Shown: in pieces, positions 4,468-48,352 of the stretch
How the letters are laid out: the number at the start of each line of letters is the position of its first letter
Numbering within the stretch: the first letter of the stretch is position 1
Virus record (IMG/VR): IMGVR_UViG_3300018494_004239
Reading direction: 5' to 3' (one strand)
Length of the DNA stretch: 64,000 bases
Origin: an uncultured virus (IMG/VR IMGVR_UViG_3300018494_004239)
Lineage: Duplodnaviria > Heunggongvirae > Uroviricota > Caudoviricetes
Program-made: the position numbers and the translations under genes
The notes under the pieces: model-generated
The model's input: only the letters and a program-made list of their open reading frames with translations
The model's database searches: none
Told to the model about the DNA's origin: nothing

Positions 4468-5775
4468 TTAACTGATGACGAAGGCAGGGTAAACAGGACG
4501 ACTATCGTATGCATTGACATGGTATTCATCGCCACGACCATAACAGAAGAAATCCTCATAACAGCGAGAATAAGGCGAACGAAGCCAGAACCAATCGTCA
4601 ACATAACCGTCGTCGGCAAACCAATCAAATGTTTCGCCTTCTGCTTCAATTTCAGTTATATACTCGTACCAACCAGACATGTCGTCATTAAAACCAACCT
4701 CTTTGATGGAAGGTAAGAATAAATAACAAGTTACACACTTTGAGCTATTCAAATTATTATCACCATCGGCACATGTAATGGTTGTAGGACTAATTACTGC
4801 TCTTAAATTTGCATCGAGATTATTATATACTTCTCCATCCAACCATGTCTTCATTTCTGTATCTGTATAACCATTGATATTATCGCCCCAAGGATAATCT
4901 GTACTTGGTGCAGTCATTCTGTGGTTGCCAATGTTTGATGTAAGCATAAATGTAACTTTATCACTATCAATGTCAACAATCCGTGCTTGTCTTGTATTCC
5001 CGTTGATTGTAAAACTTGGAGTCAAATCCCCTGTTTTCCAACCTGCATCGGTAACTTTTCCTGCACGAATTACTGCTTGAATTGTTGTCCAGTCGTTATT
5101 GGCAAGAGTTGAATCAACGGTGGACATATCAAGAGAAGTGTCTCCACTTAACGTAGCACCAAGTGTAAGGTCAATCCACTGTGCATTTACACTGTCTGAT
5201 GTGATATCATTACCTTTTGCATCCATACCAGAGATAGCATACTTATCTAATTCAGCAGCAGTTTTTGTCGGTTCTGCAACTACAACAACACCACAATCTG
5301 GTGAATACCAATAGTGCACATCTGATTGCTTTGGTTCAAAGGTGGAACTGGAAGTTTTTGTATAGTTTTCTACAACTTTTTGCATAGTGTAAGCATTCAT
5401 AGGATATTTGGTGTCTCTATAAATTGCAATCACATCATCAGCAACTGTTGCATTTTGAGCGAACTCGATTCCTTCAATACCAGCACGAGTTGTCACATCA
5501 ATTACATTTTTAACTCTACCCTGTGCACTGTCTAAATTATCTGGGTCTAATGTACCAGAGGCAATGTCCTGACAGTAGAGTTCATACTCCGAAGCAAATC
5601 TTTCGAGTGCATTTGTCATCTCGTTGCTATTAGTTTTATCAGCAGATACATTTGCTCTGTCAATAAGTCCTGCAACTGAAGGAATTGCGATAGCGGCAAG
5701 AACTGCGAGAATGCCAATAACTACGAGTAATTCAATTAAAGTAAAACCCTTACGGGATTTAATATTTAGTTTCAT
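4468..5775 (-). CDS. Type IV pilin-like protein (copy 2) with DUF6273-like/C-lectin-type C-terminal domain; candidate DGR target
   Basis: Prepilin signal; C-terminus 'YLFLPSIKEV', 'WFWLRSP', 'VYPAFVI'. Confidence 0.85.
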   Translation of the reverse strand: MKLNIKSRKGFTLIELLVVIGILAVLAAIAIPSVAGLIDRANVSADKTNSNEMTNALERFASEYELYCQDIASGTLDPDNLDSAQGRVKNVIDVTTRAGIEGIEFAQNATVADDVIAIYRDTKYPMNAYTMQKVVENYTKTSSSTFEPKQSDVHYWYSPDCGVVVVAEPTKTAAELDKYAISGMDAKGNDITSDSVNAQWIDLTLGATLSGDTSLDMSTVDSTLANNDWTTIQAVIRAGKVTDAGWKTGDLTPSFTINGNTRQARIVDIDSDKVTFMLTSNIGNHRMTAPSTDYPWGDNINGYTDTEMKTWLDGEVYNNLDANLRAVISPTTITCADGDNNLNSSKCVTCYLFLPSIKEVGFNDDMSGWYEYITEIEAEGETFDWFADDGYVDDWFWLRSPYSRCYEDFFCYGRGDEYHVNAYDSRPVYPAFVIS

Positions 5776-6064
5776 AAGAAATCATCCTTTCACATATAGT
5801 ATATTTACTATACGTGATTTTTTTCTTGTCAATGAAAAATCTCTACGAACTTTTCGTGGAGATTTGTATTCACCGTCGTCTACTTCTTTGTTTTTTGTTA
5901 TTTAATGGTGTCTATTGCATAAGTTTAATTTTTGTGGGGTTTTGAAGTGGGAAGATAGATAATATTATAGGGATAAAAGGCAAAAATGTTTGAATTTTTG
6001 GGAAGTGCTATTGGGTAGTAGAAAACATAAAAAGGACATCGATATCGATGTCCTTTTTGGAAAA

Positions 6065-7435
6065 TTATTTGCAACCTGCATTGTGGACAACTACACCATT
6101 AACAATGTAATTGTGGAAATTTGCAACACCTAAATTGTAAGTGTTATAGTTATCTATTGCAGGTCTGGTTTCAATAGAAATTATTGTGACATTGTTGTTG
6201 TATCCGACCAAGGTGTCTCCAACTTCTAACATTGGTACAATTCCAACATCAGTAATTGTCTCAACCATTTCTGGTCTCAAAGATTTCCAGCCATCTGTGG
6301 TGAGGAGTGGATGATATGCTCTCATTCCGATTTGTGTACCATCAGAAAGATTTACATATACAAGGTCATCAGAATTGTGCTTGATAATGGTATTGGTTAC
6401 TGGTTGTGCAACAAATTCGCCAGTAGTTTCATTGAGTGACATTACCATATCACCAACAATAACATCTTCAATGTTCTTGGTTGTTCCATCTGCCATCAAA
6501 ACTTGTGAACCAGCATCAAAGCAACACCAATGGATTGGTTGATAATCTCTTCCATCAACTATAACATGGGTTCTTTCGACCCAATAAGAATCTGGCGCAC
6601 CACTTAAACTCCAAGAATCAGCGGATGTATGTTTTGGTGTATAAATTCTTATAGCATCATCATGCATAAAGTCAAAGTAAATTTCTGGTGTTGGAGTTGT
6701 TCTTTGATATTCTGGATGTTCATTCAACCATTCTTCCCAAGTTTGACCTTCTTTTGCTGTAAATCTATAACCAGCAAAACTAAAAGTTATTGTTTTTACC
6801 ATTGGTACTTGCGAGTCAGATGTTACATTACACCAATTTGCATAATTATCATCAAGTGCATTTCCTTTTGCATCCTTGCCAGAAACCACTAAATCATTAA
6901 GTTGTGCAATAGAGGCATTAGTATCAGCAACTACAACAATACCACAATCTGGATTGTACCAATAACTGCAATCTGATTGTTTTGGTTCAAATGTTGCGCT
7001 TGATGTTTTTGTATAATTTTGAATAATGGCTTCAAGTGTATATGTATTTAGTGGGTATTTAGTATCTCTACTAATTTTAGAATTTAAGTGTCCATTGCTT
7101 TCTAAATTAGTGATGTCTTCACGAGATACAGCACCAGTTACATTGAATACTCTACCTTGTGCACTATCTAAATCGCCATCTGGTTTGCCATCGCCATTTT
7201 CGTCTTTAATGACACCACTGGCAATATCCTGACAATAGAGTTCGTATTCGCTTGCGAATCTTTCGATTGCATTAGTATATTCATTAGCATTGGTATTGTC
7301 GGCAGAAACATTTGCTCTGTCAATCAAACCAGCAACACTTGGAATGGCAATTGCTGCGAGCACAGCAAGAATACCAATGACCACAAGTAGTTCAATTAGT
7401 GTGAAACCCTTACGGGATTTGTAATTAAATTTCAT
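6065..7435 (-). CDS. Type IV pilin-like protein (copy 3) with C-terminal Hint (intein-like) domain
   Basis: Prepilin signal; Hint 'CFDAGSQVLMADG..KNIEDVIVGDMV', 'HPLLT..GW', 'TYNLGVANFHNYIVNGVVVHN' (6080..6523). Confidence 0.9.
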   Translation of the reverse strand: MKFNYKSRKGFTLIELLVVIGILAVLAAIAIPSVAGLIDRANVSADNTNANEYTNAIERFASEYELYCQDIASGVIKDENGDGKPDGDLDSAQGRVFNVTGAVSREDITNLESNGHLNSKISRDTKYPLNTYTLEAIIQNYTKTSSATFEPKQSDCSYWYNPDCGIVVVADTNASIAQLNDLVVSGKDAKGNALDDNYANWCNVTSDSQVPMVKTITFSFAGYRFTAKEGQTWEEWLNEHPEYQRTTPTPEIYFDFMHDDAIRIYTPKHTSADSWSLSGAPDSYWVERTHVIVDGRDYQPIHWCCFDAGSQVLMADGTTKNIEDVIVGDMVMSLNETTGEFVAQPVTNTIIKHNSDDLVYVNLSDGTQIGMRAYHPLLTTDGWKSLRPEMVETITDVGIVPMLEVGDTLVGYNNNVTIISIETRPAIDNYNTYNLGVANFHNYIVNGVVVHNAGCK

Positions 7436-7537: not shown

Positions 7538-8161
7538 TTACTTTCTGTTTTCCCAAGACTCAACAACCATACATCCAGCAATTTCTTTTAGAATTTCAAT
7601 ATCATCGCCCTGAAGGATTAAATCAAAAACAGTTTCCTCATTTCCTGCTTTGGTAAAAAGTCTATACTTTGTTTGTTCTGATGTAGTTAACTTTTTAATT
7701 GTCCAAGCATAATCTGATGAAATTTCTATATCTTTCATTTCTTCGACGGTAAATTCGCTGCTAATAGAAAGATACTGCTCTTGATACAAAGAAATAACTC
7801 CAAGAATGTTTCCGTCATCATCCCTAAATATACGAGAATAATCGCCTAATGTTTCGGAATTTCCATATTTTTTATTCGTGAAATGGAGTCTGACTGTTGA
7901 ACTATTGGACAAATCGTTTGTTAGATTATAGATGATGTAAGTTTGACTTTTGTATTCACCGTCATCCACTTCTTCGTTTTTTGTTATTTCATCCTCAACA
8001 GGTTTGGTATCTTCTGTTGTGGGTTCGGTTTGTGTTTCGTCTTCTGTGGTGTCTTGAACAATACTTTCATCAGTGTTATTGGTAGTATTGTTGTTTTGAC
8101 CACAAGCAACTATAGAGAATAGCAACAAAACCGATAAAATTAAACATAATATTTTTTTCAT
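7538..8161 (-). CDS. Putative lipoprotein
   Basis: Lipobox IVAC followed by a T/E/D-rich linker. Confidence 0.75.
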   Translation of the reverse strand: MKKILCLILSVLLLFSIVACGQNNNTTNNTDESIVQDTTEDETQTEPTTEDTKPVEDEITKNEEVDDGEYKSQTYIIYNLTNDLSNSSTVRLHFTNKKYGNSETLGDYSRIFRDDDGNILGVISLYQEQYLSISSEFTVEEMKDIEISSDYAWTIKKLTTSEQTKYRLFTKAGNEETVFDLILQGDDIEILKEIAGCMVVESWENRK

Positions 8162-8196
8162 AAGATATACTCCTTTTTGTATTTTATTTAGAAAAA

Positions 8197-10653
8197 TTAT
8201 GAAAAGTTATCGCTCGACATAATAAATTCTCTTCTTGCTGGCACATCATTGCCCATAAGAATAGAAGTGATATTATTTGCTTCGATAGCATCTTCAATTT
8301 CAACTTTTTTGAGTTTTCTTGTTTCTGGATTCATCGTGGTTTCCCACAATTGTTTTGCATCCATTTCGCCTACGCTTTTATCCGATATTACTATCGGTGC
8401 TGACTATTTCTTGTCTCTGGCTGGTAACTAACTGCCTTCATAGACTCTACCTTTTCCAACTGTGTATCAATAACAGTTGTACTCTCCAACAACGGAGATA
8501 GTCGATACATGATTAAAGATTAAAAATCTTATTTCACACGAGACCATCCTCATTCACAACTATATGTTGTAGTAGGAATATCCCTCGTTAGCCACACATT
8601 GTGTGACCCCTCTGATAGAGGAAAAGTAGATAAGGGCCAGACTACTCGTACCCTTTGTACCGTTGTATATCAAAATTCTTATGTGTTTTTCTGTATTCTT
8701 CTAATTCTTTGTCGGAATACATATAAACTTCAGACTTTGATGTTTTTGCTCGATATAGCGGAGGCATCGCATTATAAACTTTACCAGCATAAATAAGTTC
8801 TGGCATAAATCTATAAAAAAATGTTAATAAAAGTGTTCTGATGTGCCCGCCGTCAATATCCGCGTCAGCCATGATTATGATTTTATCATAATTGAGTTTT
8901 GAAATATCAAAATCATTACCAAGACCAGTTGAAAAACCACAACCGAAAGCATTTATCATTGCCTTAATTTCGGCATTGTCTAAAATTTTTCCAATCGATT
9001 GTCTTTCAACATTAAGAATTTTACCTCGAATTGGGAGGATTGCTTGATATTTTCTGTTTCTTGCGGTTTTTGCTGAACCGCCTGCAGATTTCGTTACAAC
9101 CACAATTTCTTATGGAACTGACTATTTCTTCACTCCGACTTGTCAGGTCATCATCGTGTCCAACATTTCCCAGTGTGTATCAATAACACCAGTACTCTCC
9201 AACAACGGAGATAGTCGATACAGAGTTGTATTTTACAACTTCCACGAGATTAACTTCGCCTAACCTTGTTTTGACATTCAAGGATAACGGTCAGTCTTCC
9301 TCGTTAGCAAATACATTGTATTTACCCCTGTGATAGCAGGAAAGAAGGATAAGGGCAAATCTTTCTCTCACCCTCAACGATAAAGATTTCGCATTTTGAG
9401 GCATCATTGGATTCTTGTCTCGAAAGTTTTCCGTTGCCTTCAAATGAGAATTTCTTATCGGCAATATTTGTTTTGATTTTTTCTTCTTCTCGGCGTAATT
9501 TTGCCGATTTTTCAGCACTTGCAATAATTGTCTTCAATACATCAACATTTCTATCGAAGAAAACCTGCAGTTCTGTGTTTAATATGGATTGAATTATGTT
9601 TTTAGCATCCGTATTGTCTAACTTTGTTTTTGTTTGACCTTCGAAACGAGGTGCTGGGTGTTTGATAGAAAGAACACAAACCATACCATTTCTTGTGTCA
9701 TTGCCTGTGAAGTTCGGGTCTTTTTCCTTGAGAGAACCAATATCTCTCGCATATTGATTGAGAATACGGGCAAATCCTGCTTTGAAACCATCAATATGTG
9801 TTCCGCCTTCAACAGTGTTGATGTTGTTACAAAAACCAATTAGATTGTCTCCAAATTCATTAACATATTGAAAGGCACACTCAAAAATAATTCCATCTTT
9901 TTCACCGTTGATAAATGCAACGGGTGTGCTCTTTTCTTTATCTTTTGTTAACGATAAGACAAAACCTTTTAATCCATCTTCTTCGTGAAATACCTTTTCT
10001 GGTAAATCATCTCTATCATTTCTAAAAACGATTGTTAAGTTTGGATTTAGGAATGCTGTTTCGTGCAATCTTTGTTCAATAGATGATGCCTTGAATTTTG
10101 TAGTATCAAAAATTGTTTCATCTGGGTAAAAAGTAACTGTTGTTCCAGTTTCCTTCGTTTTTCCTTTTGTGGGGAGTGGTTCGTTTTTCTTTAATGGAAA
10201 AGCGGGTTTGCCAAAAGCATATTCGTCATAATGCACAAAACCATCTTTTTTGATAGTTACTATCATCTTTGAAGATAGTGCATTAACAACAGAAGAACCA
10301 ACACCGTGCAAACCACCAGATGTTTTGTAGTTTGAATTATCAAACTTACCGCCAGCATGGAGTGTGGTAAAGATAATTCTTTCTGCTGGATAACCTTTCG
10401 CATGAATATCTACTGGAATACCACGACCATTGTCCTCAATTGTTGCTGAACCGTCTTTGTTCAGGCTCACAATGATTTTGTCGCAATAACCAGAAAGGTG
10501 TTCATCAACGGAGTTATCCACAATTTCAAATATTAGATGGTTTAATCCTTTTACTGATGTAGAACCGATATACATACCTGGTCTTTTTCGTACAGGGTCT
10601 AAACCTTCCAATACGGTAATGCTATCTGCATTATATTGCTTCAAAATAATCAC
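8197..10653 (-). CDS. gyrB: Type IIA topoisomerase B subunit (GyrB/ParE-like), three exons: 10653-9370, 9091-8650, 8372-8197; 633 aa spliced
   Basis: [66 protein letters not shown]...LWETTMNP; exons sum to 1902 nt in frame. Confidence 0.92.
8373..8649 (-). ncRNA. Group I intron 2 of gyrB (277 nt, no ORF)
   Basis: 5' exon ends AAAGGGU and pairs with GCCCUU; intron ends in G; P7 elements AUCGACUA / AAGAAAUAGUC; removal restores YKGLGEM. Confidence 0.9.
9092..9369 (-). ncRNA. Group I intron 1 of gyrB (278 nt, no ORF)
   Basis: 5' exon ends GAGGGU and pairs with GCCCUU; IGS AGAUUU pairs with 3' exon AAAUCU; ends in G; same core as intron 2. Confidence 0.9.
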
Positions 10654-19977: not shown

Positions 19978-21539
19978 TATTTAAGTGTCAAAACATCCGT
20001 CTTTGACGGTGGATGCAGGCACAGCGGTCGCACTTGAAGTGCAAGACCGCATATCTTAAACAAACAGTAGAGCGGTAGCGGTGCTGTTTGTTTATTGGAT
20101 TCTATTGACATTTTCTTACTTTTTAAGTATAATTTATACATATAAAACTTATGAAAGGAGTGATAAAAATGTTTAAGAAAGGTTCTTTCAAAAGCAATGG
20201 AACGAATACTGTTAATATTAAATGCAGTATAGACATACCCGTTTCAAAATTAGAACTTCTCAATAAATATTTTGGTCACTCTCGTTTTATATATAACTGG
20301 GCAATTGATTTTAATACCGATAGGTACAAGAATAACTTGCAACAGTATAATTTTGTAAATTTGGCAAAAGAATTACCAAATTTAAAGAAAGTAAACCCAT
20401 TTCTTAAAGAAGCAGATGCTACTTGTTTACAACAAGCGTTGCAGGACTATTGGACCACAATGCAACACTTTTATCAAAAGAAATGCGGTTTACCAAAATA
20501 CCGCAGCAAACACAGTAACCAGAGTTTTCGTATAATGAATGTTACAAATGGCATTCGTTTTGATGGTAACAAAATTAAGTTGGGAAAATTTGGTTGGGTG
20601 AGAACCAAACCTAATCAAGCGATACCTAACGGCACTATTCAATCTGCGACTGTTAAAAAAACGAAATCTGGTAAAGTTTATGTAACTCTTACTATTCGTC
20701 GTGCAGATAGAATTGAACAGTTTGATAAAACTGGCAAAGAAGTAGGTATCGATATCGGAATTAGTCATTTCACTACATTTTCCGATGGAACAGTTATCGA
20801 AAAACCCAATTTTATCAAGCAAAACGAAAAGAAAAAGAGAAGACTCTATCGGCAACTCTCTAAAAAGCAAAAGGGTTCAAAAAATAGAGAGAAAGCAAAA
20901 CTAAAATTAGCAAAATTCTGTGGAAAAGATGCGAACTGTAGAGAAGATTTTCTTCATAAGTTATCTCTTGATATAGTAAGAGAATATGACTTAATTGCGG
21001 TAGAGCATCTTAATGTTAAGAAAATGCTAATGGACAATTCTTTGCCTTACAGTAAGGAATTGCATAAAAACATTGGCGAACTTGGTTGGTATTCATTTAT
21101 ATCTAAATTAAAATATAAATCTGAATGGTATGGTAAAACTTTCATACAGGTTGATACCTACTACCCAAGTTCACAAATCTGCAGTTGCTGTGGATACAAA
21201 AATGCAGAAGTAAAAAATCTCTCCGTTAGAAATTGGATATGTCCCAATTGCAATACTGCCCACGATAGAGATTTTAATGCTTCTGTCAACATATTGAACG
21301 AAGGCAAGAGATTGCTCACTGCCTAATTATATAAACAGTACCGTGGGACACACGGGAACTTACGTCTGTGGACATCGTGTAAGACCAGTTGAGTTATGCT
21401 CAATTGGCAGTGATGGAAGAAGCAGAAACCTTGTAATTCCACTTTAATGGTGGTTTCTATAAAAAATGAACAACCCGTGGTTAGACCGTTAGGGTTGTTC
21501 GTAATGGAAACTACCGCTTGAAGCGGTAGAGGATGTCAT
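19978..21539 (+). mobile_element. IS200/IS605-family non-autonomous element (tnpB only)
   Basis: Subterminal hairpins catccgtc..gacggtggatg and ctaccgcttgaagcggtag; inserted after TTAT, ends TCAT (boundary may shift 3 nt); removal restores the deoC frame. Confidence 0.85.
20169..21326 (+). CDS. tnpB: RNA-guided endonuclease TnpB
   Basis: 'FGHSRFIYN', RuvC GIDIG / IAVEHL / HDRDFNASVNI, zinc finger CSCC..CPNC. Confidence 0.93.
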   Translation: MFKKGSFKSNGTNTVNIKCSIDIPVSKLELLNKYFGHSRFIYNWAIDFNTDRYKNNLQQYNFVNLAKELPNLKKVNPFLKEADATCLQQALQDYWTTMQHFYQKKCGLPKYRSKHSNQSFRIMNVTNGIRFDGNKIKLGKFGWVRTKPNQAIPNGTIQSATVKKTKSGKVYVTLTIRRADRIEQFDKTGKEVGIDIGISHFTTFSDGTVIEKPNFIKQNEKKKRRLYRQLSKKQKGSKNREKAKLKLAKFCGKDANCREDFLHKLSLDIVREYDLIAVEHLNVKKMLMDNSLPYSKELHKNIGELGWYSFISKLKYKSEWYGKTFIQVDTYYPSSQICSCCGYKNAEVKNLSVRNWICPNCNTAHDRDFNASVNILNEGKRLLTA

Positions 21540-21989
21540 TATGTATCACAGGCAAAGGCACATCTTGAATGTAGTGATGTAAAAGTTTGCACTGTTGTTG
21601 GTTTTCCAAATTGGGATTGTTCTACTTTTGCAAAAGTTGCAGAAGAGATTAGAACAATCGTTGAAGCGATTGATGACCACAAAAGAGGTTGCGACATTGT
21701 AATTCTAAAAGTTATTGTCGAAACCTGTTGTCTCACGGAATGGCAGATTAAAAAGATGTGTCAGATTTGTGCGGAATGTGGTGCTGACTACATTAAGACA
21801 TCTACTGGTTTTGCAGAACACGGTGCAACACCAGAGGCAGTTTCTATTATGAAAGAAATGATTGATAGAAACAATTTTGACCTTAAAATTAAAGCATCGG
21901 GAGGTATTAGAACTCTTGTAGATGCTAAAAAATATATTGATATTGGTGCCGATAGAATCGGTGCGAGTAATCTATGCTAAAAGAAAGGG

Positions 21990-22700
21990 GTGTTCGTTGT
22001 GTCCACCTATGTTATGTCGGATATTCACGGTAGATACGACGAATATCTCGAAATGTTACTAAAAATAAATTTCTCCCACAAAGATAAATTATATATTCTT
22101 GGGGATGTCATTGACCGTGGGCAAAATCCAATCAAGGTCTTAAGACACACAATGTATGCAGACAATATTGTTCTTTTGATGGGTAATCATGAAAAAATGA
22201 TGCTCGATTCTGCAAGCACAGACGAAGAGAAAAGAGCAGAAGCAAACGATATGTGGGAGTGGAACGGTGGTTATACCACAAAGAGAGAATTCTTTGAATT
22301 ATCAAAAGAAGTTCGACAAGAAATTATTGATTATATTGCCGAACTTAAATGGTACGAGTTTGTGGAAATTGGTGATAAAAAATTCTTTTTATCCCATGCT
22401 GCTCTTTGTATGAGAGATGGAGATAGTTTTGAAGAAACTCTTGAAAATGAAGTTAAAAGTGAAAACATCCTCTGGAATAGAGGAGAGTTGAGATTTTGGG
22501 AGAACACTTCCGATTATATATTTGTACATGGTCATACACCAAGTGGTAAATGGCATCCTTTTGGTTTTTATGAAATTCTCACTTACGATGATGGGAAAAA
22601 GATAAATATTGATTGCGGATGTGCAAAAATACAGAGACTTGGTTGCTTGAGACTTGACGATATGTGTCAATTCTATGTTGAGTGCGACAAGAGTTTATAA
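21990..22700 (+). CDS. Calcineurin-like metallophosphoesterase (Ser/Thr phosphatase-like)
   Basis: SDIHG, GDVIDRG, GNHE, HGHTP, IDCGC. Confidence 0.9.
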   Translation: MFVVSTYVMSDIHGRYDEYLEMLLKINFSHKDKLYILGDVIDRGQNPIKVLRHTMYADNIVLLMGNHEKMMLDSASTDEEKRAEANDMWEWNGGYTTKREFFELSKEVRQEIIDYIAELKWYEFVEIGDKKFFLSHAALCMRDGDSFEETLENEVKSENILWNRGELRFWENTSDYIFVHGHTPSGKWHPFGFYEILTYDDGKKINIDCGCAKIQRLGCLRLDDMCQFYVECDKSL

Positions 22701-22755
22701 AAAAATTTTTCTTAAAATACTTGACAAATGTAATTTTATGTTTTATAATAGCAGA

Positions 22756-23264
22756 ACGATAACAAAAATGTTATCGAGCAATCTCCTTCGACTGGGTTGA
22801 AAAATGAGTTGAAGGTCGTGGCAAATAGAAGTAATTTGGATTTTGACCTGAACTTCTTTGGAAACATTGGAAATTCCTTGGGAACTTCTACACGAAGCAT
22901 CTATTGAGATGTGGACGTATTGGGGAACACTGAATGGAAGGTGCGGAAAAAGTGGGGATGCGATAATGAAGGATTAGTTTCGGTCCTGATTGCATTGCTA
23001 TTCGCTTGTCGAATAGTTACAAGGAGACACTTACCGCAGGTTTCCTCACCGAAAGGTTCGCCTTTCGATTGTGCACCAAGAATGGTGCTTGTGGTATATT
23101 GGAGATGAATGGGTTGAACTTCTCCACTAACTTGCCTTCATACTTGGGTTGAAAATGAGTATGATGACCGTAAGGGCATTCGGAAACGAATGGCAAAATA
23201 ATAAAGTACAAAACTTAATTGTTTGTATAAATTAGGACTTAATCGAAAGGTTAAGTCCTTTTTT
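22756..23264 (+). ncRNA. Candidate ~500-nt structured noncoding RNA
   Basis: Promoter TTGACA(22721)-17-TATAAT; terminator 23234-23264; many hairpins; GGGUUGAA loop three times; no credible ORF. Confidence 0.65.
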
Positions 23265-23345
23265 ATTTTATTTTTTGAAAAAATAAAGTCCATATGATAT
23301 TGTTTTTGTATTGGTATATTAAACACAATATTAAGGAGGAATAAT

Positions 23346-24059
23346 ATGAAAGCACAAATTAGCCAATTTATCGTCGAGGTAGGAAGAAAATGCAACCGTC
23401 AATGTGCTCATTGCCTGCGCGGTGCTATGGAAGATGTAACGATTGATATTGAATATGTTAAGCATATCATCAATCAGGTAAGTTACATTGGTTGCATCAC
23501 TTTCACTGGTGGCGAACCTACTCTCTACAGCAAGGAAATTGCTGAAATTGTCGATTACATCGTAGATAATCATGTCGAGGTTGGCGGTTTCTATATCGCA
23601 TCCAATGGAGAGATTTACAGTCACGAACTCATGACTGCTCTCATCAAACTCTATGCACATAGTCTGGAGTTTGGCGACAACGAATTGACTGCATACGATG
23701 TATCAAATGACCAGTTCCACTCTCCAAATCCCGACGTTATCGCAAAACTGAAGGCATTTTCTTTCTTCAGTCAGCGAAATGAGATTCCTGCAAAGGGTCT
23801 TATTGCAGAGGGTTTTGCAAAGGACACTGGTTATCGTTATCTGAACTACGACAAGAAGTTCTATGTAAGTGAATATCCAGATTACGATGGCGAGGATACT
23901 GTGTATGAGTTCGATATGCTTTATCTTAATGCCCTTGGCAAGATGCTTACTGATTGTGATTACTCTTTCGCCTCTCAAAGAAACATTGATGCTCCCGCAT
24001 ACAATGAGATTTCTCTCGTTGACCTTGCTTTGAACGAAAAGTATTCCAATATCGAGTAA
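23346..24059 (+). CDS. Radical SAM protein
   Basis: CNRQCAHC, FTGGEP. Confidence 0.85.
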   Translation: MKAQISQFIVEVGRKCNRQCAHCLRGAMEDVTIDIEYVKHIINQVSYIGCITFTGGEPTLYSKEIAEIVDYIVDNHVEVGGFYIASNGEIYSHELMTALIKLYAHSLEFGDNELTAYDVSNDQFHSPNPDVIAKLKAFSFFSQRNEIPAKGLIAEGFAKDTGYRYLNYDKKFYVSEYPDYDGEDTVYEFDMLYLNALGKMLTDCDYSFASQRNIDAPAYNEISLVDLALNEKYSNIE

Positions 24060-24103
24060 AAAAGAAAGTACCAGACATTTGTCTGGTACTTTTGCTTTGT
24101 ATG

Positions 24104-24940
24104 TTATTTAATTTCTGATTTTTTGAATTTTGCATAACCAAACCATACAAATAGTAGGATGTATAAAAGTGTACTACCATATATTGTTGCATAGTTGATT
24201 GCTGATACATCAAAATTAACAAGTTCAATACACTGATATAGAGGGAAAAGAAGTGTTACATTCATGTCCCAACCAAGCACCATATTGAACATTGGTAAAA
24301 TGGTGTTAAAAATCATAAAAGAAACGATAAATAAAGAAACAGATGCTACCGTTGATTGTGTCGCAAATACGAAACAATGTGCGGCGGCGATTACACCGAT
24401 ATAAATCGGAATTTGCCTAATTCCTGTAAATAACAATTCTCCAAGTTGGGATGCAGAAATACCTTCCCAATATACAAGCATACTACTTAAAATTGCAAAT
24501 ACGAAAAATACTAAATAGTAACCAATCGTATACAAACAAGAAAGTGTAAACTTTGAAAAATAGATATTTTTTCTACTGATACCAGCAGTAAGCGAGTTTT
24601 TAATCGTTCCCGATGAAAATTCAACCGCAGAAACCAAAATGAAAATCGCAATTAAGCAATAAATAAGCGTATCGGATTTTAGAATTTCCTGTGCCGTTGT
24701 AAATGCTGTTGAAGAACCAAAACTTCCTACCAGCATATCTCCCATTTCGGCGATATCTCCGCCTTCAACGGGGGTTTCTTGCATAATACTTTCACCTGGC
24801 AACAAAGTGTTGGCAACAATATCAATGCCTTTATAAAGTAATGCGGAAAGCAATACAAAAACAATACATACAATTGCCGTTACATAAAGAGATTTTGATT
24901 TACTTGTTCTATACAAGTCTGCTTTCAATAAGTTTGTCAT
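24104..24940 (-). CDS. ABC-2 type transporter permease
   Basis: Six hydrophobic segments; 'EFSSGTIKNSLTAGISRKNIYFSK'. Confidence 0.85.
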   Translation of the reverse strand: MTNLLKADLYRTSKSKSLYVTAIVCIVFVLLSALLYKGIDIVANTLLPGESIMQETPVEGGDIAEMGDMLVGSFGSSTAFTTAQEILKSDTLIYCLIAIFILVSAVEFSSGTIKNSLTAGISRKNIYFSKFTLSCLYTIGYYLVFFVFAILSSMLVYWEGISASQLGELLFTGIRQIPIYIGVIAAAHCFVFATQSTVASVSLFIVSFMIFNTILPMFNMVLGWDMNVTLLFPLYQCIELVNFDVSAINYATIYGSTLLYILLFVWFGYAKFKKSEIK

Positions 24941-25842
24941 CATGCATTACCTCCATTACTCAAAATAGTTAAGAACAAATCTTCCAAAGTGATTTTCTTA
25001 TGATAAATTGCATCGATAACGATTTCTTTTTCAACCATATCTTTTGCAAATGTGTGAGTTTGCATATCTTTACTCTCAACCTCAACAGTGTTGTGGTCGA
25101 TTTCTTCGAATGCCAATTTCTTTGATGTGAGATATTCTTTTAATTTATCGAATTCTGGTGAAGCAATAATAATCTTATCACTTGTCATTTCTGCCAATTC
25201 ATCCTTTGTAAATTCCTTGATGAATTTACCTTCATTGATAATGCCAAACTTTGTGGCAATTTGAGAAAGTTCTGACAAGATATGACTACAAATGATAAAG
25301 GTAACACCATTATCATTAAGTTCTTTGATAATTTCTCTTAATTCGGAAATGCCGACTGGGTCAAGACCATTTGTGGGTTCGTCCAAAATTACAAGTTTTG
25401 GATTATTCATCAAAGCAAGAGCAATTCCGAGTCTCTGTTTCATTCCGAGAGAATATTCTCTAAACTTTTTCGTGTTTTTAACACTGGATAACTTCACTTT
25501 TTCCAAGCAAATATCAACAATTTCTTCTTTGCAGTTAAACTGTTTGCAATAGAAAATCAAATTTTCTCTTGCTGTTAAATTTTTGAAGAATACTGGTGTT
25601 TCGATAATAGAACCGATATTTCTTCTTGGTTCTTCTAAATTAGCAGAATCAAAAATAGTTAGTTCGCCAGTTGTTGGCATTGTAAGACCAGTAATAACCT
25701 TGATAAAAGTAGATTTACCAGCACCATTTGGTCCGATTAAACCGTAAATATCACCTTTGTTGATTTCAATAGAAAAATCATTCAATGCTTTTGTATTTCG
25801 ATAAACTTTCGAAATATTTTTCATAGAAATTACACTGCTCAT
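24940..25842 (-). CDS. ABC transporter ATP-binding protein (BcrA/lantibiotic-immunity type)
   Basis: GPNGAGKST, YSLGMKQRL, ILDEPTNGLDP. Confidence 0.92.
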   Translation of the reverse strand: MSSVISMKNISKVYRNTKALNDFSIEINKGDIYGLIGPNGAGKSTFIKVITGLTMPTTGELTIFDSANLEEPRRNIGSIIETPVFFKNLTARENLIFYCKQFNCKEEIVDICLEKVKLSSVKNTKKFREYSLGMKQRLGIALALMNNPKLVILDEPTNGLDPVGISELREIIKELNDNGVTFIICSHILSELSQIATKFGIINEGKFIKEFTKDELAEMTSDKIIIASPEFDKLKEYLTSKKLAFEEIDHNTVEVESKDMQTHTFAKDMVEKEIVIDAIYHKKITLEDLFLTILSNGGNA

Positions 25843-25845
25843 ATA

Positions 25846-26463
25846 TTACCCTCCATTGTTACTTGTATATAGTATATAGTTTTCTGTTGGCATTTCATTT
25901 GTTAGTCCGTTTTCAACAGATGAAGTAATATTAATCCACATTCCCGTTAAATCATCTTCATCTCTTGTACTCATTAAAATTTCTTTTAATACATTTCTGT
26001 CTGTAATGCCTTTTTCTGCTTTTACAACGAGACCTGTATCTACATTGTAATAGTAATCAAAACCAAATTGAGATGGTGTTGTTAATTTTTTGTTTTCAAC
26101 TTGACAGTAATTAAATACGACTGCTGAAAAACTTTTTGCAGTTATTGGTAAAAAGTCTTTATCAAATGTCGCATTACATCTGTTATTGATTAGTTCTTCA
26201 TAATTCGTTTCTCCATCTGTTACCTGTCTTAATACTGCTTCAACTTTTGGCATATCATAAGTCGCAGACAAATAAGAGCGACCATCAATAGCGTAGTGAT
26301 TTATTGCGATTTCCATTGCTCTAATCTCTTGCATATCGCTTGATGCTCTTGCCTTTTCTATAATTCCAGCAACAGAAGGTACAGTTACGAATGCTAAAAC
26401 AGCAAGAATGCCGATAACTACTAATAGTTCGATAAGGGTAAAACCCTTTTTAGAAGTGAGCAT
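25846..26463 (-). CDS. Short, divergent type IV pilin-like protein (copy 4), no tip domain
   Basis: MLTSKKG|FTLIELLVVIGILAVLAFVTVPSVAG; first gene of the ABC operon. Confidence 0.85.
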   Translation of the reverse strand: MLTSKKGFTLIELLVVIGILAVLAFVTVPSVAGIIEKARASSDMQEIRAMEIAINHYAIDGRSYLSATYDMPKVEAVLRQVTDGETNYEELINNRCNATFDKDFLPITAKSFSAVVFNYCQVENKKLTTPSQFGFDYYYNVDTGLVVKAEKGITDRNVLKEILMSTRDEDDLTGMWINITSSVENGLTNEMPTENYILYTSNNGG

Positions 26464-26611
26464 TTCAAAAGCACCTCCATAAAAATTTTCTACAGTATAA
26501 CATATTTTTTTCACAAAATCAATACAAAAAGTAGTTGACATAGGCACTATTTTGTGATACAATAATGGAGGTAAAACCGAGCACACAAAAGATAAAGGAG
26601 ATTAAAATTTT

Positions 26612-28015
26612 ATGAAGTATGATGTAGCGATTATTGGTGGTGGTGCAGGCGGTCTGTTTGCTGCCTACGAGTTCACGAAGAAGTACCCCAATATGAAGGT
26701 TTGTATTCTCGAAAAGGGAAACGAACTGAATAAGAGAAAGTGCCCGATTGACGGCAAGAAGATTAAGAATTGCATCGGATGCAAGAACTGTTCTATTACT
26801 ACTGGTATCGGTGGTGCAGGTGCTTTTTCCGATGGTAAGTATAATATCACCAATGATTTTGGTGGAAATCTTTTCGAGTATGTTGGTCGTGAGACCGCTA
26901 TCGAGTTGATGGAGTATGTTGATGCTATCAATATGGAAATGGGTGGCGATGGTTCTACCCTATATCCTTCTGCAAGTACTGCATTGAAGAGAGAGGCATT
27001 GAAGCACGATTTGCATCTGCTTGATGCGAATGTGCGCCATCTTGGTACTGAAAAGAATTACAATATTATCGGCAACATTGTCGAATATCTGTCTGATAAG
27101 ATTGATATTTTCTACAATGCTTCTGTTGATACTGTAAAGCAGTTTGAGGATATTTGGTACATCGGTGCTGGCGAAAAGTTGGGCGTCTATGCGAACAATG
27201 TCATTGTTGCAACTGGTCGTAGCGGTTCAAAGTGGACTTCCCAGTTGTGTGAGAGTTTCGGTATTGCTGGTAGCAATAACCGTGTAGATATCGGTATTCG
27301 CTTTGAGTGTCCTGCTGAAATTTGGGAACATATTACCGACGAGGTCTATGAGAGTAAGATTATGTACAGAAGTTCCAAGACTGGTTGTACTTGTCGTACT
27401 TTCTGTATGAATCCTCACGGCGAAATAGTTGCCGAGAACACCAACGGTATCGTGACTGTTAACGGGCATAGTTATGAAGATAAGTCTCTGCATACCAAGA
27501 ATACGAACTTCGCTCTGCTTGTCACTCATAAGTTCACAGAACCTTTTAAGGATAGTAATGCTTATGGGGAAGCAGTTGCAAGCATGGTAAATATGCTTGC
27601 TGGTGGTGTTATGGTTCAGCGATTTGGTGATTTGCTTGCAAATAAGCGAACCAATGCTGACAGACTTGAAAAGTCTTTTACTCGCCCCACTCTGTCTGCA
27701 GAACCTGGCAACCTTGCCCTGTGTATGCCGAAGATGACCTTGGACACTATTATCGAGATGATTTATGCTCTTGATAAGATTGCTCCTGGTACGGCAAACT
27801 ACGACAATCTGCTATATGGTGCAGAAGTTAAGTTCTATAATTCCGTTGTCAATGTTGATAATAATTTTGAGAGCGAGAAGAAGGGACTCTACTTTATCGG
27901 CGATTGCAGTGGCACTACCCACTCTTTAGGTCAGGCCAGTGCAGAAGGTGTATATGTAAGTCGTGTAATTGGCGAAAAAACGGCTGATGATAATGTCCAA
28001 GTCGATATGAAATGA
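26612..28015 (+). CDS. FAD-dependent oxidoreductase
   Basis: IIGGGAGG, GGAGAFSDGK, RTFCMNPHG, GLYFIGD. Confidence 0.85.
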   Translation: MKYDVAIIGGGAGGLFAAYEFTKKYPNMKVCILEKGNELNKRKCPIDGKKIKNCIGCKNCSITTGIGGAGAFSDGKYNITNDFGGNLFEYVGRETAIELMEYVDAINMEMGGDGSTLYPSASTALKREALKHDLHLLDANVRHLGTEKNYNIIGNIVEYLSDKIDIFYNASVDTVKQFEDIWYIGAGEKLGVYANNVIVATGRSGSKWTSQLCESFGIAGSNNRVDIGIRFECPAEIWEHITDEVYESKIMYRSSKTGCTCRTFCMNPHGEIVAENTNGIVTVNGHSYEDKSLHTKNTNFALLVTHKFTEPFKDSNAYGEAVASMVNMLAGGVMVQRFGDLLANKRTNADRLEKSFTRPTLSAEPGNLALCMPKMTLDTIIEMIYALDKIAPGTANYDNLLYGAEVKFYNSVVNVDNNFESEKKGLYFIGDCSGTTHSLGQASAEGVYVSRVIGEKTADDNVQVDMK

Positions 28016-31403: not shown

Positions 31404-31615
31404 ATGGATAAATATTTCAAACAAAAACTCGACCAAATAATTGGGATTAGTGATGAGAAAACAATAACCATTCAAATAGATAAGTACCCACGATATTTGT
31501 ACAAATATAGAGACTGCAATAGTGTTTACAACTTCGATATGATAGAGTCTCAATATTTATGGGCAGATATTCCACAACGTTTTTATGACCCCGCCGATTC
31601 TTTGGTGCATTTGAA
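31404..31615 (+). pseudogene. Truncated gene (DUF2971-like N-terminus)
   Basis: 'PRYLYKYR...LWA..P..FYDPADS' then runs into antisense serpin sequence. Confidence 0.55.
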
Positions 31616-32611
31616 ATTGTCTTTGTGTGTAAGACCTTTGCTGAATTTCGAAGTCCATTGTGCTTTTAAATACAGAGCATTTATCAAAACTGTGTTTTTA
31701 TTGGCAACGGAATCATCAACCATATTCTTAATCATTCCATTTGTTTCTTTTTCAATCCAAGTATTGATTTCGTTCTTTAATTTATTTCCGTTTACATTGA
31801 ATACTTCTGCACCGCATGCTTTGTTTATAGCATTTATAAAGGTTGTTTTGATTTTACCACCCTTATTTGCATTGTGCCATACGGAGTTTGCAATATTGAG
31901 AGTTGTTTTGTCCGAACCACCAATAATACCAGGTGATGCGATAATACCATCTTCCTGCGGAGGAGTTTCTGTAATGAGATTATCGAGTGGTTTCGTCATT
32001 TCGAGGTAAGATTTTGCCCAATCTTCACACTCTTTAATAGATTTGAAACCCAAAACCTGTAAAAGTTCTTTTTGAGTTTCTCCATTAGAACCAATTGCTG
32101 CCATAGTAAGCATATATTTTAGAGAAAGAGGAGAAGCAAACATATTTTCTTTGACACCGTATTTTTGTTCCAAATAACTAATCATCTTACTATCGAATAC
32201 TTGAAGACCAACATTAGATTGCTTCACTTCAACTTCATCCTTTACTACAACACGGTCAGAACTGGAAGTCGTATTTTCTTTTTCTGTTTCTGTTTTGTTG
32301 TTATTTACTTTTTCTTGTTCTTTTTCTGTAGTGTTTTCTGTTTCCTTATTTGTATCTTGACTTGGTTTGGTCTCTTGTTCTGTGGTTGATTCTGTTGGTG
32401 TTGTGGCATCTTCTTCTGTTGTGGTATCAGATGGTTCTGTAACAGTTGTGTCTGTTTGTGTGTCATCTGGTGTCGTGTCAGAAGGTTCTGTAGATGTCTC
32501 TGTGTTTGTTGTTTCTTCGTTTGGTTTTGTGTCGTTTTTACTTGTTGCACAACCAGTAACGGAGAAAACTAAAATAATTGCTAAAAGCAATGACAAAAGT
32601 CTTTTAGTCAT
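31583..32611 (-). pseudogene. Secreted/lipoprotein serpin, 3'-truncated
   Basis: Signal with VTGC; 'NMFASPLSL', 'GETQKELLQVLG', 'INTWIEKETNGMI', 'VLINALYLKAQW'; no reactive-centre loop. Confidence 0.8.
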
Positions 32612-34761: not shown

Positions 34762-36177
34762 TTATTGTGGGTTTTTTATAAATTCAATTCTTGGTGCACT
34801 ATTAGAGGTTATTTTCTCAACTTCTATGTCGTCGCCGTAAACAGTGATTTTTGAAGCACCGACATTCATAAACCAATCTGCATGAGAAACGAGATTGGTG
34901 CCTTTGCTAATTGTTATTGTTCCTTCAAGGTTTGAACAACCAACAAAAACTCCGTTTGCATCTTTAACAGATGATGGTATTACAAAATTTTCAAACCTCT
35001 TAACAGAAGAACATCCTTGGAATAAATAGTCAATAATTCTTGCACTTTGGGGGAGTTTAAAGTTATCTATGTTTGTTATGTTTTTACATTCTTTGAACAT
35101 TCCATACACATCAAAAACATTGTCTGGTATAATCAAATTATCAATGTTTGTTAAATTTGCACAACCTGCATAACAACCTCTCATTGATGATATTGGGACT
35201 TCATTAATGGATTCGATAACTGGTGAGTATGATGTTTTGTTTTTATCTATAGTTGTTACATACCATCTTGCCCACTTATAATAATAGTAATAATCTCCAT
35301 AGATATATACATCGCCTTCTTTAGGTGTATCTGGAAATACATAGACTCGTCTATCTACATCAGGAAAATTGTAACTATGGCCACAACTTAAAGCACTTAT
35401 GTATTTCCCATCCGCAAAGGTCCACTGACATGTCGGGCATATAACACATTCTTTAAGATAGATTGCATCATTTGGAACATTTTTGACTGGATTTAAGTCT
35501 GGGTCATTAGAACCATAATCAAGTTTTCCGTCATTTGCTCCATTTGTTAAATTTATCCAAATGGTAGCATTTTCTCCGTTATCTACAAGTGGTCTCCCCT
35601 TTGCATCAACACCAGAAGTTATCATTTTATTTTTGTCTGCGATAGAAGAGTTTGGTGATGCATAAATAACTACACCACAATCTGGACTATACCAATAATG
35701 CATATCTGATTGTTTTGGTTCAAAGGTTGAAGAAGATGTTTTTGTATAACTCTCAATAATTTTCTTTAGTGTATAAGCATTTGCGGGATATTTTGTGTCT
35801 CTATAAAGTTGAGGAATATTGTTGTTGATAGTTCCGTTATATGCTATTTCTGTTGTTTCTATACCATTTCTTGTTGTTATGCCAGTAACACTATAGACTC
35901 TGTTTTGTGTGGCATCCATATTATCTGGTTTGCCATCATTATTTGTATCTATTAATACACCAGATGCAATGTCCTGACAGTAGAGTTCGTACTCACTTGC
36001 AAACCTTTCAATAGCATTTGTATATTCATTGGTGTTAGTTTTGTCAGCAGATACATTCGCTCTATCGATAAGTCCAGCAACTGATGGGATTGCGATAGCG
36101 GCGAGGACTGCAAGGATACCTATAACTACAAGAAGTTCGATTAGTGTAAAACCTGCTTTTGATTTTAGTAGTTTCAT
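34762..36177 (-). CDS. Type IV pilin-like protein (copy 5) with BspA-like LRR C-terminus
   Basis: Prepilin signal KAG|FTLIEL; repeats 'F.GC.NL..I..F.IP.SV'. Confidence 0.88.
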   Translation of the reverse strand: MKLLKSKAGFTLIELLVVIGILAVLAAIAIPSVAGLIDRANVSADKTNTNEYTNAIERFASEYELYCQDIASGVLIDTNNDGKPDNMDATQNRVYSVTGITTRNGIETTEIAYNGTINNNIPQLYRDTKYPANAYTLKKIIESYTKTSSSTFEPKQSDMHYWYSPDCGVVIYASPNSSIADKNKMITSGVDAKGRPLVDNGENATIWINLTNGANDGKLDYGSNDPDLNPVKNVPNDAIYLKECVICPTCQWTFADGKYISALSCGHSYNFPDVDRRVYVFPDTPKEGDVYIYGDYYYYYKWARWYVTTIDKNKTSYSPVIESINEVPISSMRGCYAGCANLTNIDNLIIPDNVFDVYGMFKECKNITNIDNFKLPQSARIIDYLFQGCSSVKRFENFVIPSSVKDANGVFVGCSNLEGTITISKGTNLVSHADWFMNVGASKITVYGDDIEVEKITSNSAPRIEFIKNPQ

Positions 36178-47812: not shown

Positions 47813-48352
47813 TTATTCTGGTCTTTTTAATTGGATGATTCTTGCTCCAATTTGAGCAGATTGTTTTAATTTTTCATAATCATCTTGTAATTGTTCATAT
47901 TGTTCTTCAAGAGAAGAATTCCTTGATTGTATGTTTTTAATTTCAACCTGTAATCGCATATTTTCATGGCGAAGATTTTCAGTTTCAAAATCTCTTAAAA
48001 GAAATTGTCTGACCTGTCTCTCCAGTTCCTCGCATTTTGATTTTAAGCGCTCTACATCGCCCGCAGAGGCAGTCTTTTCATCAAACGAAGAAGAATACTC
48101 CTCTACAAATAAACGCAGTAATTCGTTATTGTAGAAGGTCTTGCGGGCTATCCCAGTGTCTGCTGCGATAACAGAAACATTAATGGGTCTGCCCTGCAAA
48201 ATCTCCCTTGCTTTATTAACTTCCATAAGTCTTGCTTGTATAGCATCGTCTGCCTTTTCAAACTGTGCTAATTTTTGCTTTGAAATAGTATCAACACTTG
48301 CTCCGTGACGAGCAAGGAATTCATTGATGCGAATTATTTTTTCGTTCTCCAT
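47813..48352 (-). CDS. HTH/coiled-coil accessory protein (GinD/TnpC-like)
   Basis: 'INVSVIAADTGIARKTFY' plus long coiled coil; overlaps the third recombinase. Confidence 0.7.
   Translation of the reverse strand: MENEKIIRINEFLARHGASVDTISKQKLAQFEKADDAIQARLMEVNKAREILQGRPINVSVIAADTGIARKTFYNNELLRLFVEEYSSSFDEKTASAGDVERLKSKCEELERQVRQFLLRDFETENLRHENMRLQVEIKNIQSRNSSLEEQYEQLQDDYEKLKQSAQIGARIIQLKRPE

Follow-up and report, generated by a model that had tools for sequence, protein, structure and literature searches.

A predicted large structured noncoding RNA with three hairpins sharing one loop word in chromosomal DNA of an uncultivated gut bacterium

The stretch of DNA analyzed here (64,000 nucleotides [nt]; hereafter the window) is held in IMG/VR as virus record IMGVR_UViG_3300018494_004239, and between the genes for a metallophosphoesterase and a radical-SAM protein it contains roughly 500 nt that are enclosed by a promoter and an intrinsic terminator, and for which a noncoding RNA (ncRNA) is predicted (Table 1). 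A first-pass annotation of the same letters had described this interval as a GC-enriched region, without a credible open reading frame (ORF), lying between a consensus promoter and a strong terminator. Both signals were confirmed, and the length (∼508 nt) and the absence of a credible ORF also stand, while the rise in GC is only modest (0.40 for the RNA vs. 0.348 for the window). Judging from the position of the -10 element, transcription would start at about 22755-22757. The locus thus has the features of a stand-alone bacterial ncRNA gene, namely its own promoter, its own intrinsic terminator, and no credible reading frame; the interpretation as a free-standing gene is well supported, and the RNA is very probably a functional one.

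Perfect promoters are common in this DNA. The window contains 14 perfect TTGACA-N16-18-TATAAT sites where 0.23 would be expected, and none of 100 shuffles reaches 14; such promoters are therefore the ordinary type of the organism and no oddity of the RNA locus, and the promoter of the RNA should function. Most of the 14 sites also carry a TGTG/TATG extended -10 element, and as a group they are unusually near consensus. The ∼47 nt around the RNA promoter (22701-22747) recur at ∼80-87% identity in several other short contigs from the same metagenomes, with unrelated sequence on either side, and have the appearance of a promoter cassette common to other loci.

We analyzed sequence divergence across the locus by comparison with L027, a 6459-nt metagenome contig that aligns to window positions 21636-27984 with 96.6% identity over 6349 nt, and that was the sole true homologue recovered by pattern scans. 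The two sequences differ at 216 positions, of which only three fall among the 508 nt of the RNA (0.59%), vs. 213 in the 5841 nt elsewhere (3.65%; Fisher p = 3.1e-5). In the six flanking genes, substitutions at the first, second, and third codon positions number 18, 9, and 159, respectively, such that 159 of 186 are at third positions; expressed as rates, ∼9.0% of third positions have changed, vs. 0.77% of first and second positions combined. The spacers adjoining the RNA are 3.6-3.7% divergent (13/354, 2/56, and 3/81), and the constraint stops at the terminator, with the last of these counts belonging to 23265-23345. The substitutions within the RNA have neither codon periodicity nor an excess at third positions. 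At 0.59%, the RNA is as constrained over its entire length as non-synonymous sites, and strong purifying selection at nearly every position is a supported reading of the alignment. The case for the RNA itself being the functional product rests most strongly on this low divergence.

The coding potential of the interval was also examined. The longest internal frames are 65 amino acids (from GTG) and 64 amino acids (from TTG), and when the sequence is read by eye, none of the ATG, GTG, or TTG frames of the RNA is preceded by a suitably spaced Shine-Dalgarno sequence. No candidate sharing words with the 65-amino-acid frame was present among 5.8 billion protein clusters, and seven further internal frames are absent from a collection of 15 billion proteins, which does contain the radical-SAM protein encoded next to the RNA on the same DNA (P0001). 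A natural variant carried by X8 and X18 (22922 G>A; codons read by eye) introduces a stop codon into the sole ATG frame, of 22 amino acids. A translated, conserved small ORF, which could have explained the locus in place of an RNA, was accordingly not found among the frames checked. A frame of 134 amino acids, open under code 4 (with TGA as a sense codon), was dismissed, as the window clearly uses code 11; stop-to-stop frames of at least 200 amino acids under code 11 cover 88% of the window.

Thermodynamic prediction of the fold points to a chain of local hairpins. The 505-nt fold has a free energy of -144.9 kcal/mol (z = -4.4), and none of 100 shuffles is equally stable. For ten local helices the pair probability exceeds 0.7 in the window sequence as well as in L027, a natural variant, and the local hairpins of the window sequence have mean pair probabilities of 0.83-0.99. 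All seven stems that were listed in the first-pass annotation are present in the sequence. Pair 23092-23170 of the helix that bears hairpins 2 and 3 has a probability of 0.78 in L027. The middle domain contains two of the three copies of a second repeated word, GAACUUCU (22850-22857 and 22882-22889; the third is at 23116-23123), as well as a degenerate UUGGGAAC version of the loop motif that is described below. The word GAACUUCU is able to pair alternatively with AGAAGU at 22827-22832, and the middle domain may switch between two folds.

Table 1. Predicted features of the RNA locus and its immediate neighbors (window coordinates).
Feature	Position	Strand	Remarks
ApaH/PrpA-like metallophosphoesterase gene	21990-22700		Upstream of the RNA
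Sigma-70 promoter	22721-22749	+	TTGACA at 22721-22726, 17-nt gap, TATAAT at 22744-22749; 12/12 match
ncRNA transcript, ∼508 nt (predicted)	22757-23264	+	Low divergence vs. L027; RNA-library contigs; no Rfam match
5'-terminal hairpin CGAUAACA-AAAA-UGUUAUCG	22757-22776	+	Pair probability 0.96; z = -8.8
Hairpin 1, CCUUCGACU / AGUUGAAGG	22785-22815	+	Loop holds UGGGUUGAA (22793-22801); pair probability 0.99; z = -3.5
Middle domain, alternative pairings	22816-22895	+	Low pair probabilities, 0.1-0.3
Hairpin GCAUCU-AUUG-AGAUGU	22897-22912	+	Probability >0.7 in window and L027 folds
Least constrained segment	22916-22972	+	Six of the eight variable positions among six sequences
Two-tier hairpin GAUGCGAU / AUUGCAUU with AGGAUU / GGUCCU	22957-22996	+	Pair probabilities 0.92 and 0.83; z = -2.2
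Hairpin GCUAUUCG / CGAAUAGU	22997-23017	+	In minimum free energy fold of window and L027; low ensemble probability (0.14 in window)
Hairpin GAAAGG-UUCG-CCUUUC	23051-23066	+	Pair probability 0.99
Hairpin GCACCA-AGAA-UGGUGC	23073-23088	+	Pair probability 0.95
Y-shaped domain, helix CUUGUGGU (23088-23095) / ACCGUAAG (23167-23174) bearing hairpins 2 and 3	23088-23174	+	Predicted for the isolated segment
Hairpin 2, UGGAGA / UCUCCA	23100-23126	+	UGGGUUGAA (23110-23118) in 15-nt loop; pair probability 0.94; alone z = -1.0
Hairpin 3, UCAUACUUG / UGAGUAUGA	23138-23164	+	Holds UGGGUUGAA (23145-23153); pair probability 0.94; z = -2.9
Hairpin CAUUCG-GAAA-CGAAUG	23177-23192	+	GNRA tetraloop; pair probability 0.98
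Intrinsic terminator	23234-23265	+	11-bp stem and GAAA loop (23234-23259), then TTTTTT; pair probability 0.99
Radical-SAM protein gene, 237 amino acids	23346-24059	+	Only generic core matches; start ATG 87 nt past terminator
Divergent ABC-2 transporter			Downstream of the radical-SAM gene

Three of the hairpins display the same loop word on different stems, as the first-pass annotation had claimed. The word GGGTTGAA occurs three times in the window, always on the + strand and always within the RNA (22794, 23111, and 23146), and the full word common to the three loops is a 9-mer, UGGGUUGAA. Each copy of the 9-mer lies in a predicted hairpin loop, and it occurs nowhere else in the 64 kb. The mean unpaired probabilities of the three copies are 0.73, 0.86, and 0.88, vs. 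0.38 for the whole RNA. Hairpins 1 and 3 additionally have a 19-nt module in common, ACU(U)GGGUUGAAAA(A)UGAGU, on stems that otherwise differ, which gives a hint from within the molecule that the loop sequence and the pairing of the stem are selected separately. A degenerate fourth copy of the motif, UUGGGAACUUCU, at ∼22875, suggests that the RNA may have grown by internal duplication.

Variation was compared among six near-identical sequences (98-99%), comprising the window, L027, and contigs of X8, X13, X18, and X19, and the UGGGUUGAA loops are invariant in all six. Eight variable positions are on view (22856, 22916, 22922, 22931, 22951, 22954, 22972, and 23092), and one further difference in X18 is unlisted. 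At 23092, U and C both preserve the predicted pairing to G23170 (G-U and G-C, respectively) within the helix on which hairpins 2 and 3 sit. With the exception of 22972, which is taken up below, the remaining variable positions lie in weakly predicted or unpaired regions and are uninformative on pairing.

Among the 24 sequencing runs listed, 20 contain the RNA stretch or part of it, and 18 contain at least half of its words; four are RNA libraries, six are possible sources, and 16 studies are represented. The run records are mostly of animal gut or faeces metagenomes, and one holder of the stretch is labelled terrestrial. Four runs were compared in detail: two metatranscriptomes from different studies and two DNA runs. 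Each of the metatranscriptomes yields one contig that consists wholly of this stretch (456 nt, corresponding to 22775-23230, and 422 nt, corresponding to 22770-23191), and both contigs begin 14-19 nt 3' of the inferred start and end at or before the terminator. The contigs from the DNA runs (16950 nt and 727 nt) extend beyond both ends of the RNA. The RNA-library contigs give a weak hint of a discrete transcript. The two RNA runs have little or no contig matching the flanks of the RNA, which was not counted as evidence, and the contig depths of 51 and 21, vs. 2-3, were not taken as expression levels.

The known distribution of the RNA is narrow, being confined to a single species-level lineage from animal guts. 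A blastn search with 544 nt against 50,697 phage and 72,556 plasmid records gave no match, and BLAST of the RNA over 401 genomes from the order of G001 returned only AT-rich or terminator matches of 20-50 nt. No paralogue was present in the window. Pattern scans for the spacing of the three motifs in IMG/VR gave 12 loci, none with a blastn match to the RNA; all are either repeats without relation to it or genes of high GC. A pattern of loop 2 plus loop 3 gave seven loci, all by chance, in 185,579 species genomes, and 21 loci in JGI metagenomes, of which only L027 is real; the exact 19-nt modules gave 2 + 2 loci in IMG/VR, all in unrelated sequence that lacks the hairpin. The RNA is absent upstream of a distant relative of the radical-SAM gene (L013; 36%, IMG/VR), and no relative of the metallophosphoesterase was found in IMG/VR. 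Radical-SAM homologues at 81-53% identity are present in public assemblies, and given these, relatives surely exist. The homologues comprise P0002 (81%), P0003 (77%), P0004 (72%), P0005 (68%), and P0006-P0017 (53-59%), with the fragment P0012 reaching 78% over 62% of the query.

Comparison with known RNA families upheld the orphan status of the RNA. Rfam 15 gave no matches over the whole window at gathering scores, and a permissive search of 801 nt (22600-23400; E ≤ 10) gave only four hits at chance level (Yfr10, RT-6, bxd_6, and sR28; 11.6-19.4 bits, vs. cut-offs of 39-50). ARAGORN identified no transfer RNA (tRNA) or transfer-messenger RNA (tmRNA) genes in the window. By these two methods, the RNA has no match to ROOL, GOLLD, OLE, raiA, HEARO, RNase P, tmRNA, signal recognition particle (SRP) RNA, 6S RNA, T-box, or riboswitch models. 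A full-text search of the literature for the loop word found only unrelated papers on microRNAs and ribozymes, and this, together with searches on the topic, suggests that the RNA is not described in print. The proposal that this is a large structured orphan ncRNA was thus borne out, through the lack of an Rfam family, the evidence for purifying selection, the occurrence in RNA libraries, and the lack of an ORF. The suggestion that it belongs with ROOL or GOLLD was not, as neither model matches even at E ≤ 10. The RNA resembles ROOL, GOLLD, and OLE in its length of several hundred nt, its many conserved hairpins, its noncoding nature, the unknown biochemical function, and the occurrence in rumen, gut, and other uncultivated bacteria, but it lies among ordinary genes. 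In further contrast to these three, it is absent from the phage and plasmid records (blastn) and from IMG/VR (pattern scans), and is known from one species-level lineage only. It also has features in common with the raiA motif RNA, which is reported to be structured, abundant, and strongly conserved, to have a promoter and a terminator of its own, and to be of unknown function (PMC12968392), but the present RNA is approximately twice as long, has a very narrow known distribution, and has no Rfam raiA match. Among orphan structured bacterial ncRNAs, a familiar kind, it forms a new family whose triple display of one loop is unusual.

No mobile element visibly carries the RNA, although it had been annotated as possibly element-borne. 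Neither phage nor plasmid matches were found, the flanks are the metallophosphoesterase and radical-SAM genes, and the same flanking genes surround the RNA in the independent contig L027. The window further contains recA, a fragmented gyrB, ung, restriction-modification genes, three tandem tyrosine recombinases, and several prepilin-type proteins. It is chromosomal DNA rich in accessory genes, with no demonstrable phage or plasmid, and the carrier of the RNA is an uncultivated bacterium of the animal gut. A TnpB gene (IS200/IS605-type; 20151-21326) lies upstream behind its own perfect promoter (20105-20133) and has a GC-richer 3' tail, as expected for a guide RNA. The BLAST homology to L027 begins at 21636, with a short 100% match reaching 21621 and ∼95 nt upstream in L027 that are unlike the window, which places the end of the TnpB element at least 1.1 kb before the promoter of the RNA; the element and the RNA are separate.

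Peptide-modifying enzymes (e.g., YydG and HxsC) are among the weak core matches of the radical-SAM protein, and a nearby ABC ATPase is closest to lantibiotic-protection transporters (243 bits, under the cut-off of that model). PADLOC and PDB searches of the neighbors gave only generic matches to the radical-SAM/viperin core and to ABC ATPases. Elsewhere in the window, gyrB is in pieces (8100-10653, - strand): the N-terminal 443 amino acids (9322-10653) stop after IFIVEGE, a Toprim piece (8642-9103) occupies a different frame, and near 8200 the first frame continues with the C-terminal end, which could reflect frameshifts, inserted sequence, or an assembly error. In a sample of 401 genomes from one phylum, 393 match the N-terminal part of GyrB, at 44-48% identity, as do three others, and the identity of RecA is at most 63% in that phylum and 55-61% in five others. 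Three tandem tyrosine-recombinase genes (48334-53735, - strand; 623, 730, and 452 amino acids) have the layout of a recombinase-trio mobile element, and adjoin methylase and GmrSD/HNH restriction genes. The intervals 4468-7435, 25846-26586, 34762-36177, and 57147-58346 encode five proteins whose N-terminal methylation motif is of the prepilin type and whose C-terminal parts are long and varied, and these include one with DUF6273 and one with a pretoxin-HINT domain. A frame of 342 amino acids with a serpin domain (31583-32611, - strand; E = 1e-35) lies opposite to type I restriction-modification genes, and overlaps a + strand frame of 201 amino acids.

RNAs of the CsrB/RsmZ type titrate an RNA-binding protein by means of many GGA motifs in their loops, and they provide a parallel for a possible function. 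The RNA is well supported as the product of its own promoter and terminator, with a predicted fold of ten or more local hairpins in a chain. As best explained, though tentatively, it would act in trans, with its repeated loops docking a single partner, as a sponge or scaffold. The three UGGGUUGAA hairpins, one near the 5' end and two side by side on the Y-shaped 3' domain, would then form a multivalent docking surface; by analogy, the loops are putative sites for one trans partner, a suggestion that we regard as possible and somewhat short of probable. The most likely candidate for this partner would be an RNA-binding protein, titrated or scaffolded as by the CsrB/RsmZ-type RNAs, although we rate a protein partner as less probable still. 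The present RNA resembles CsrB, RsmZ, and RsmY in displaying one short single-stranded word in several hairpin loops of a stand-alone RNA, with the same logic of multivalent titration, but its word is UGGGUUGAA rather than GGA, it has only three copies, and no CsrA-like partner was identified (no CsrA-like gene is among the window proteins scanned). The reading as a protein sponge, which the first-pass annotation had also offered, is therefore a reasonable guess, in which the loop repeat is real and the partner only postulated.

Several observations weigh against this trans-acting interpretation. No partner of the loops has been identified, and GGA is not enriched in the RNA (14 copies, vs. 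13.1 ± 2.4 in 1000 shuffles, 431 of which reach 14). Of 5000 dinucleotide shuffles of the RNA, nine contain a non-trivial 9-mer in three copies, such that the triple occurrence of a complex 9-mer is unusual and not extreme. The fold is a thermodynamic prediction, and the six sequences are too alike for covariation; the long-range helices are poorly determined (probabilities of 0.05-0.3), hairpin 2 alone is no more stable than its shuffles (z = -1.0), and the L027 variant 22972 G>A breaks a predicted G-C pair in the two-tier hairpin without compensation. The RNA-library contigs are no proof of transcription, of strand, or of the ends of the transcript. Finally, a gene on the same strand begins 87 nt after the terminator, and the RNA may have a role in cis.

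The repeated loops could alternatively serve an architectural purpose, making tertiary or quaternary contacts (e.g., T-loop-like turns) that compact the RNA or join its copies into a homo-oligomer, as in ROOL, GOLLD, and OLE; we consider this unlikely, while noting that it is in keeping with several features of the RNA. Its size of ∼500 nt, its many short hairpins with GNRA and UUCG tetraloops, and the near-total constraint along its whole length rather than in the loops alone are all consistent with such a role, and large ornate bacterial RNAs, including these three, form RNA-only homo-oligomers according to one report (PMC12286853). The double T-loop module (PMC3664808) consists of two interlocked five-nucleotide loops, one AG..A and one UG..A, and by sequence the UGAAA of loops 1 and 3 fits the UG..A half. 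Loop 2, however, has UGAAC, which departs from this pattern, and none of the loops could be assigned as the AG..A partner. The Rfam models of ornate RNAs all fail to match, and the loops are not self-complementary, with no UUCAACCC complement within the RNA.

In Staphylococcus aureus RNAIII and in RsaE/RoxS, C-rich loops pair with Shine-Dalgarno regions, and the present RNA is similar to these in its length or number of hairpins, and in exposing one motif on several loops. A base-pairing regulator with redundant seeds, whose three G-rich loops would pair with C-rich, UUCAACCC-like sites in target messenger RNAs (mRNAs) or in another RNA, would account for the exposure of one word on three hairpins, and for the strong promoter and terminator that the RNA has of its own. 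This is less likely still than an architectural role: the loops here are rich in G, U, and A, and the window offers no perfect complement on either strand, except for the antisense of the RNA itself. Sites with one mismatch number 38 in the window (15 on the + strand and 23 on the - strand), and no clustering at gene starts was seen, the coordinates having been only glanced at. Furthermore, the constraint over the full ∼500 nt exceeds what seeds would need.

A leader or attenuator acting in cis on the radical-SAM gene, in which the RNA would sense a signal and choose between termination at 23259 and read-through, is improbable. The gene is on the same strand, with the short spacing to its ATG given above, and its own promoter-like site matches at only 9 of 12 positions, while the typical promoters of the window are perfect. 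Neither a riboswitch nor a T-box model matches at E ≤ 10, however, and 500 nt is far longer than known leaders. By eye, the one alternative to the terminator stem (11 bp) is a weak pairing of 8 bp, and the spacer between the terminator and the gene diverges at the neutral rate (3/81). That no RNA contig bridges the terminator proves nothing alone. An mRNA for one or more small proteins, such as a peptide precursor on which the neighboring radical-SAM enzyme and ABC exporter would act, is very improbable, although the neighborhood resembles peptide-maturation clusters in its YydG/HxsC-like core matches and its lantibiotic-type ABC ATPase. The arrangement expected for a ribosomally synthesized and post-translationally modified peptide, with a short ORF and ribosome-binding site upstream of the maturase, was not found, and the evidence from Shine-Dalgarno positions (by eye), from the eight frames absent from protein collections, from the natural stop in the 22-amino-acid frame, and from the lack of a third-position excess all stands against it. 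Least credible is a very divergent housekeeping RNA (RNase P RNA, tmRNA, SRP RNA, or 6S RNA) of an unusual lineage, which the strong constraint and the presence in RNA libraries would suit, but for which there is no such Rfam model at E ≤ 10 in the 801-nt search, no tmRNA or tRNA by ARAGORN in the window, no GGAAAGUCC-type P4 strand by eye, and no copy by pattern scans in the 185,579 species genomes, where an essential family would be expected. The short stretches AGAUGAAUG, GUACAAAAC, and GGGU(U)GAAA may resemble conserved regions of RNase P.

The narrow known distribution of the RNA (one lineage, from animal guts) limits generality. A more far-reaching possibility, which we hold to be a long shot, is that this RNA, from a gut lineage yet to be cultivated, would be the first known of a new class of large structured RNAs, with its three invariant UGGGUUGAA loops acting as T-loop-like turns that clamp a structured partner (e.g., the tRNA elbow) or hold its copies together in an assembly of RNA only, as in ROOL and GOLLD. 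If so, the RNA would represent a new fold with its own recognition module, and not a linear sponge. Its nine-letter loop, shown three times, is a simple handle for pull-downs or for structural work. Large structured bacterial RNAs of unknown function are rare, and each one so far has led to unexpected biology or architecture; the RNA described here is constrained like protein-coding sequence over ∼500 nt, and is found in gut metatranscriptome assemblies.

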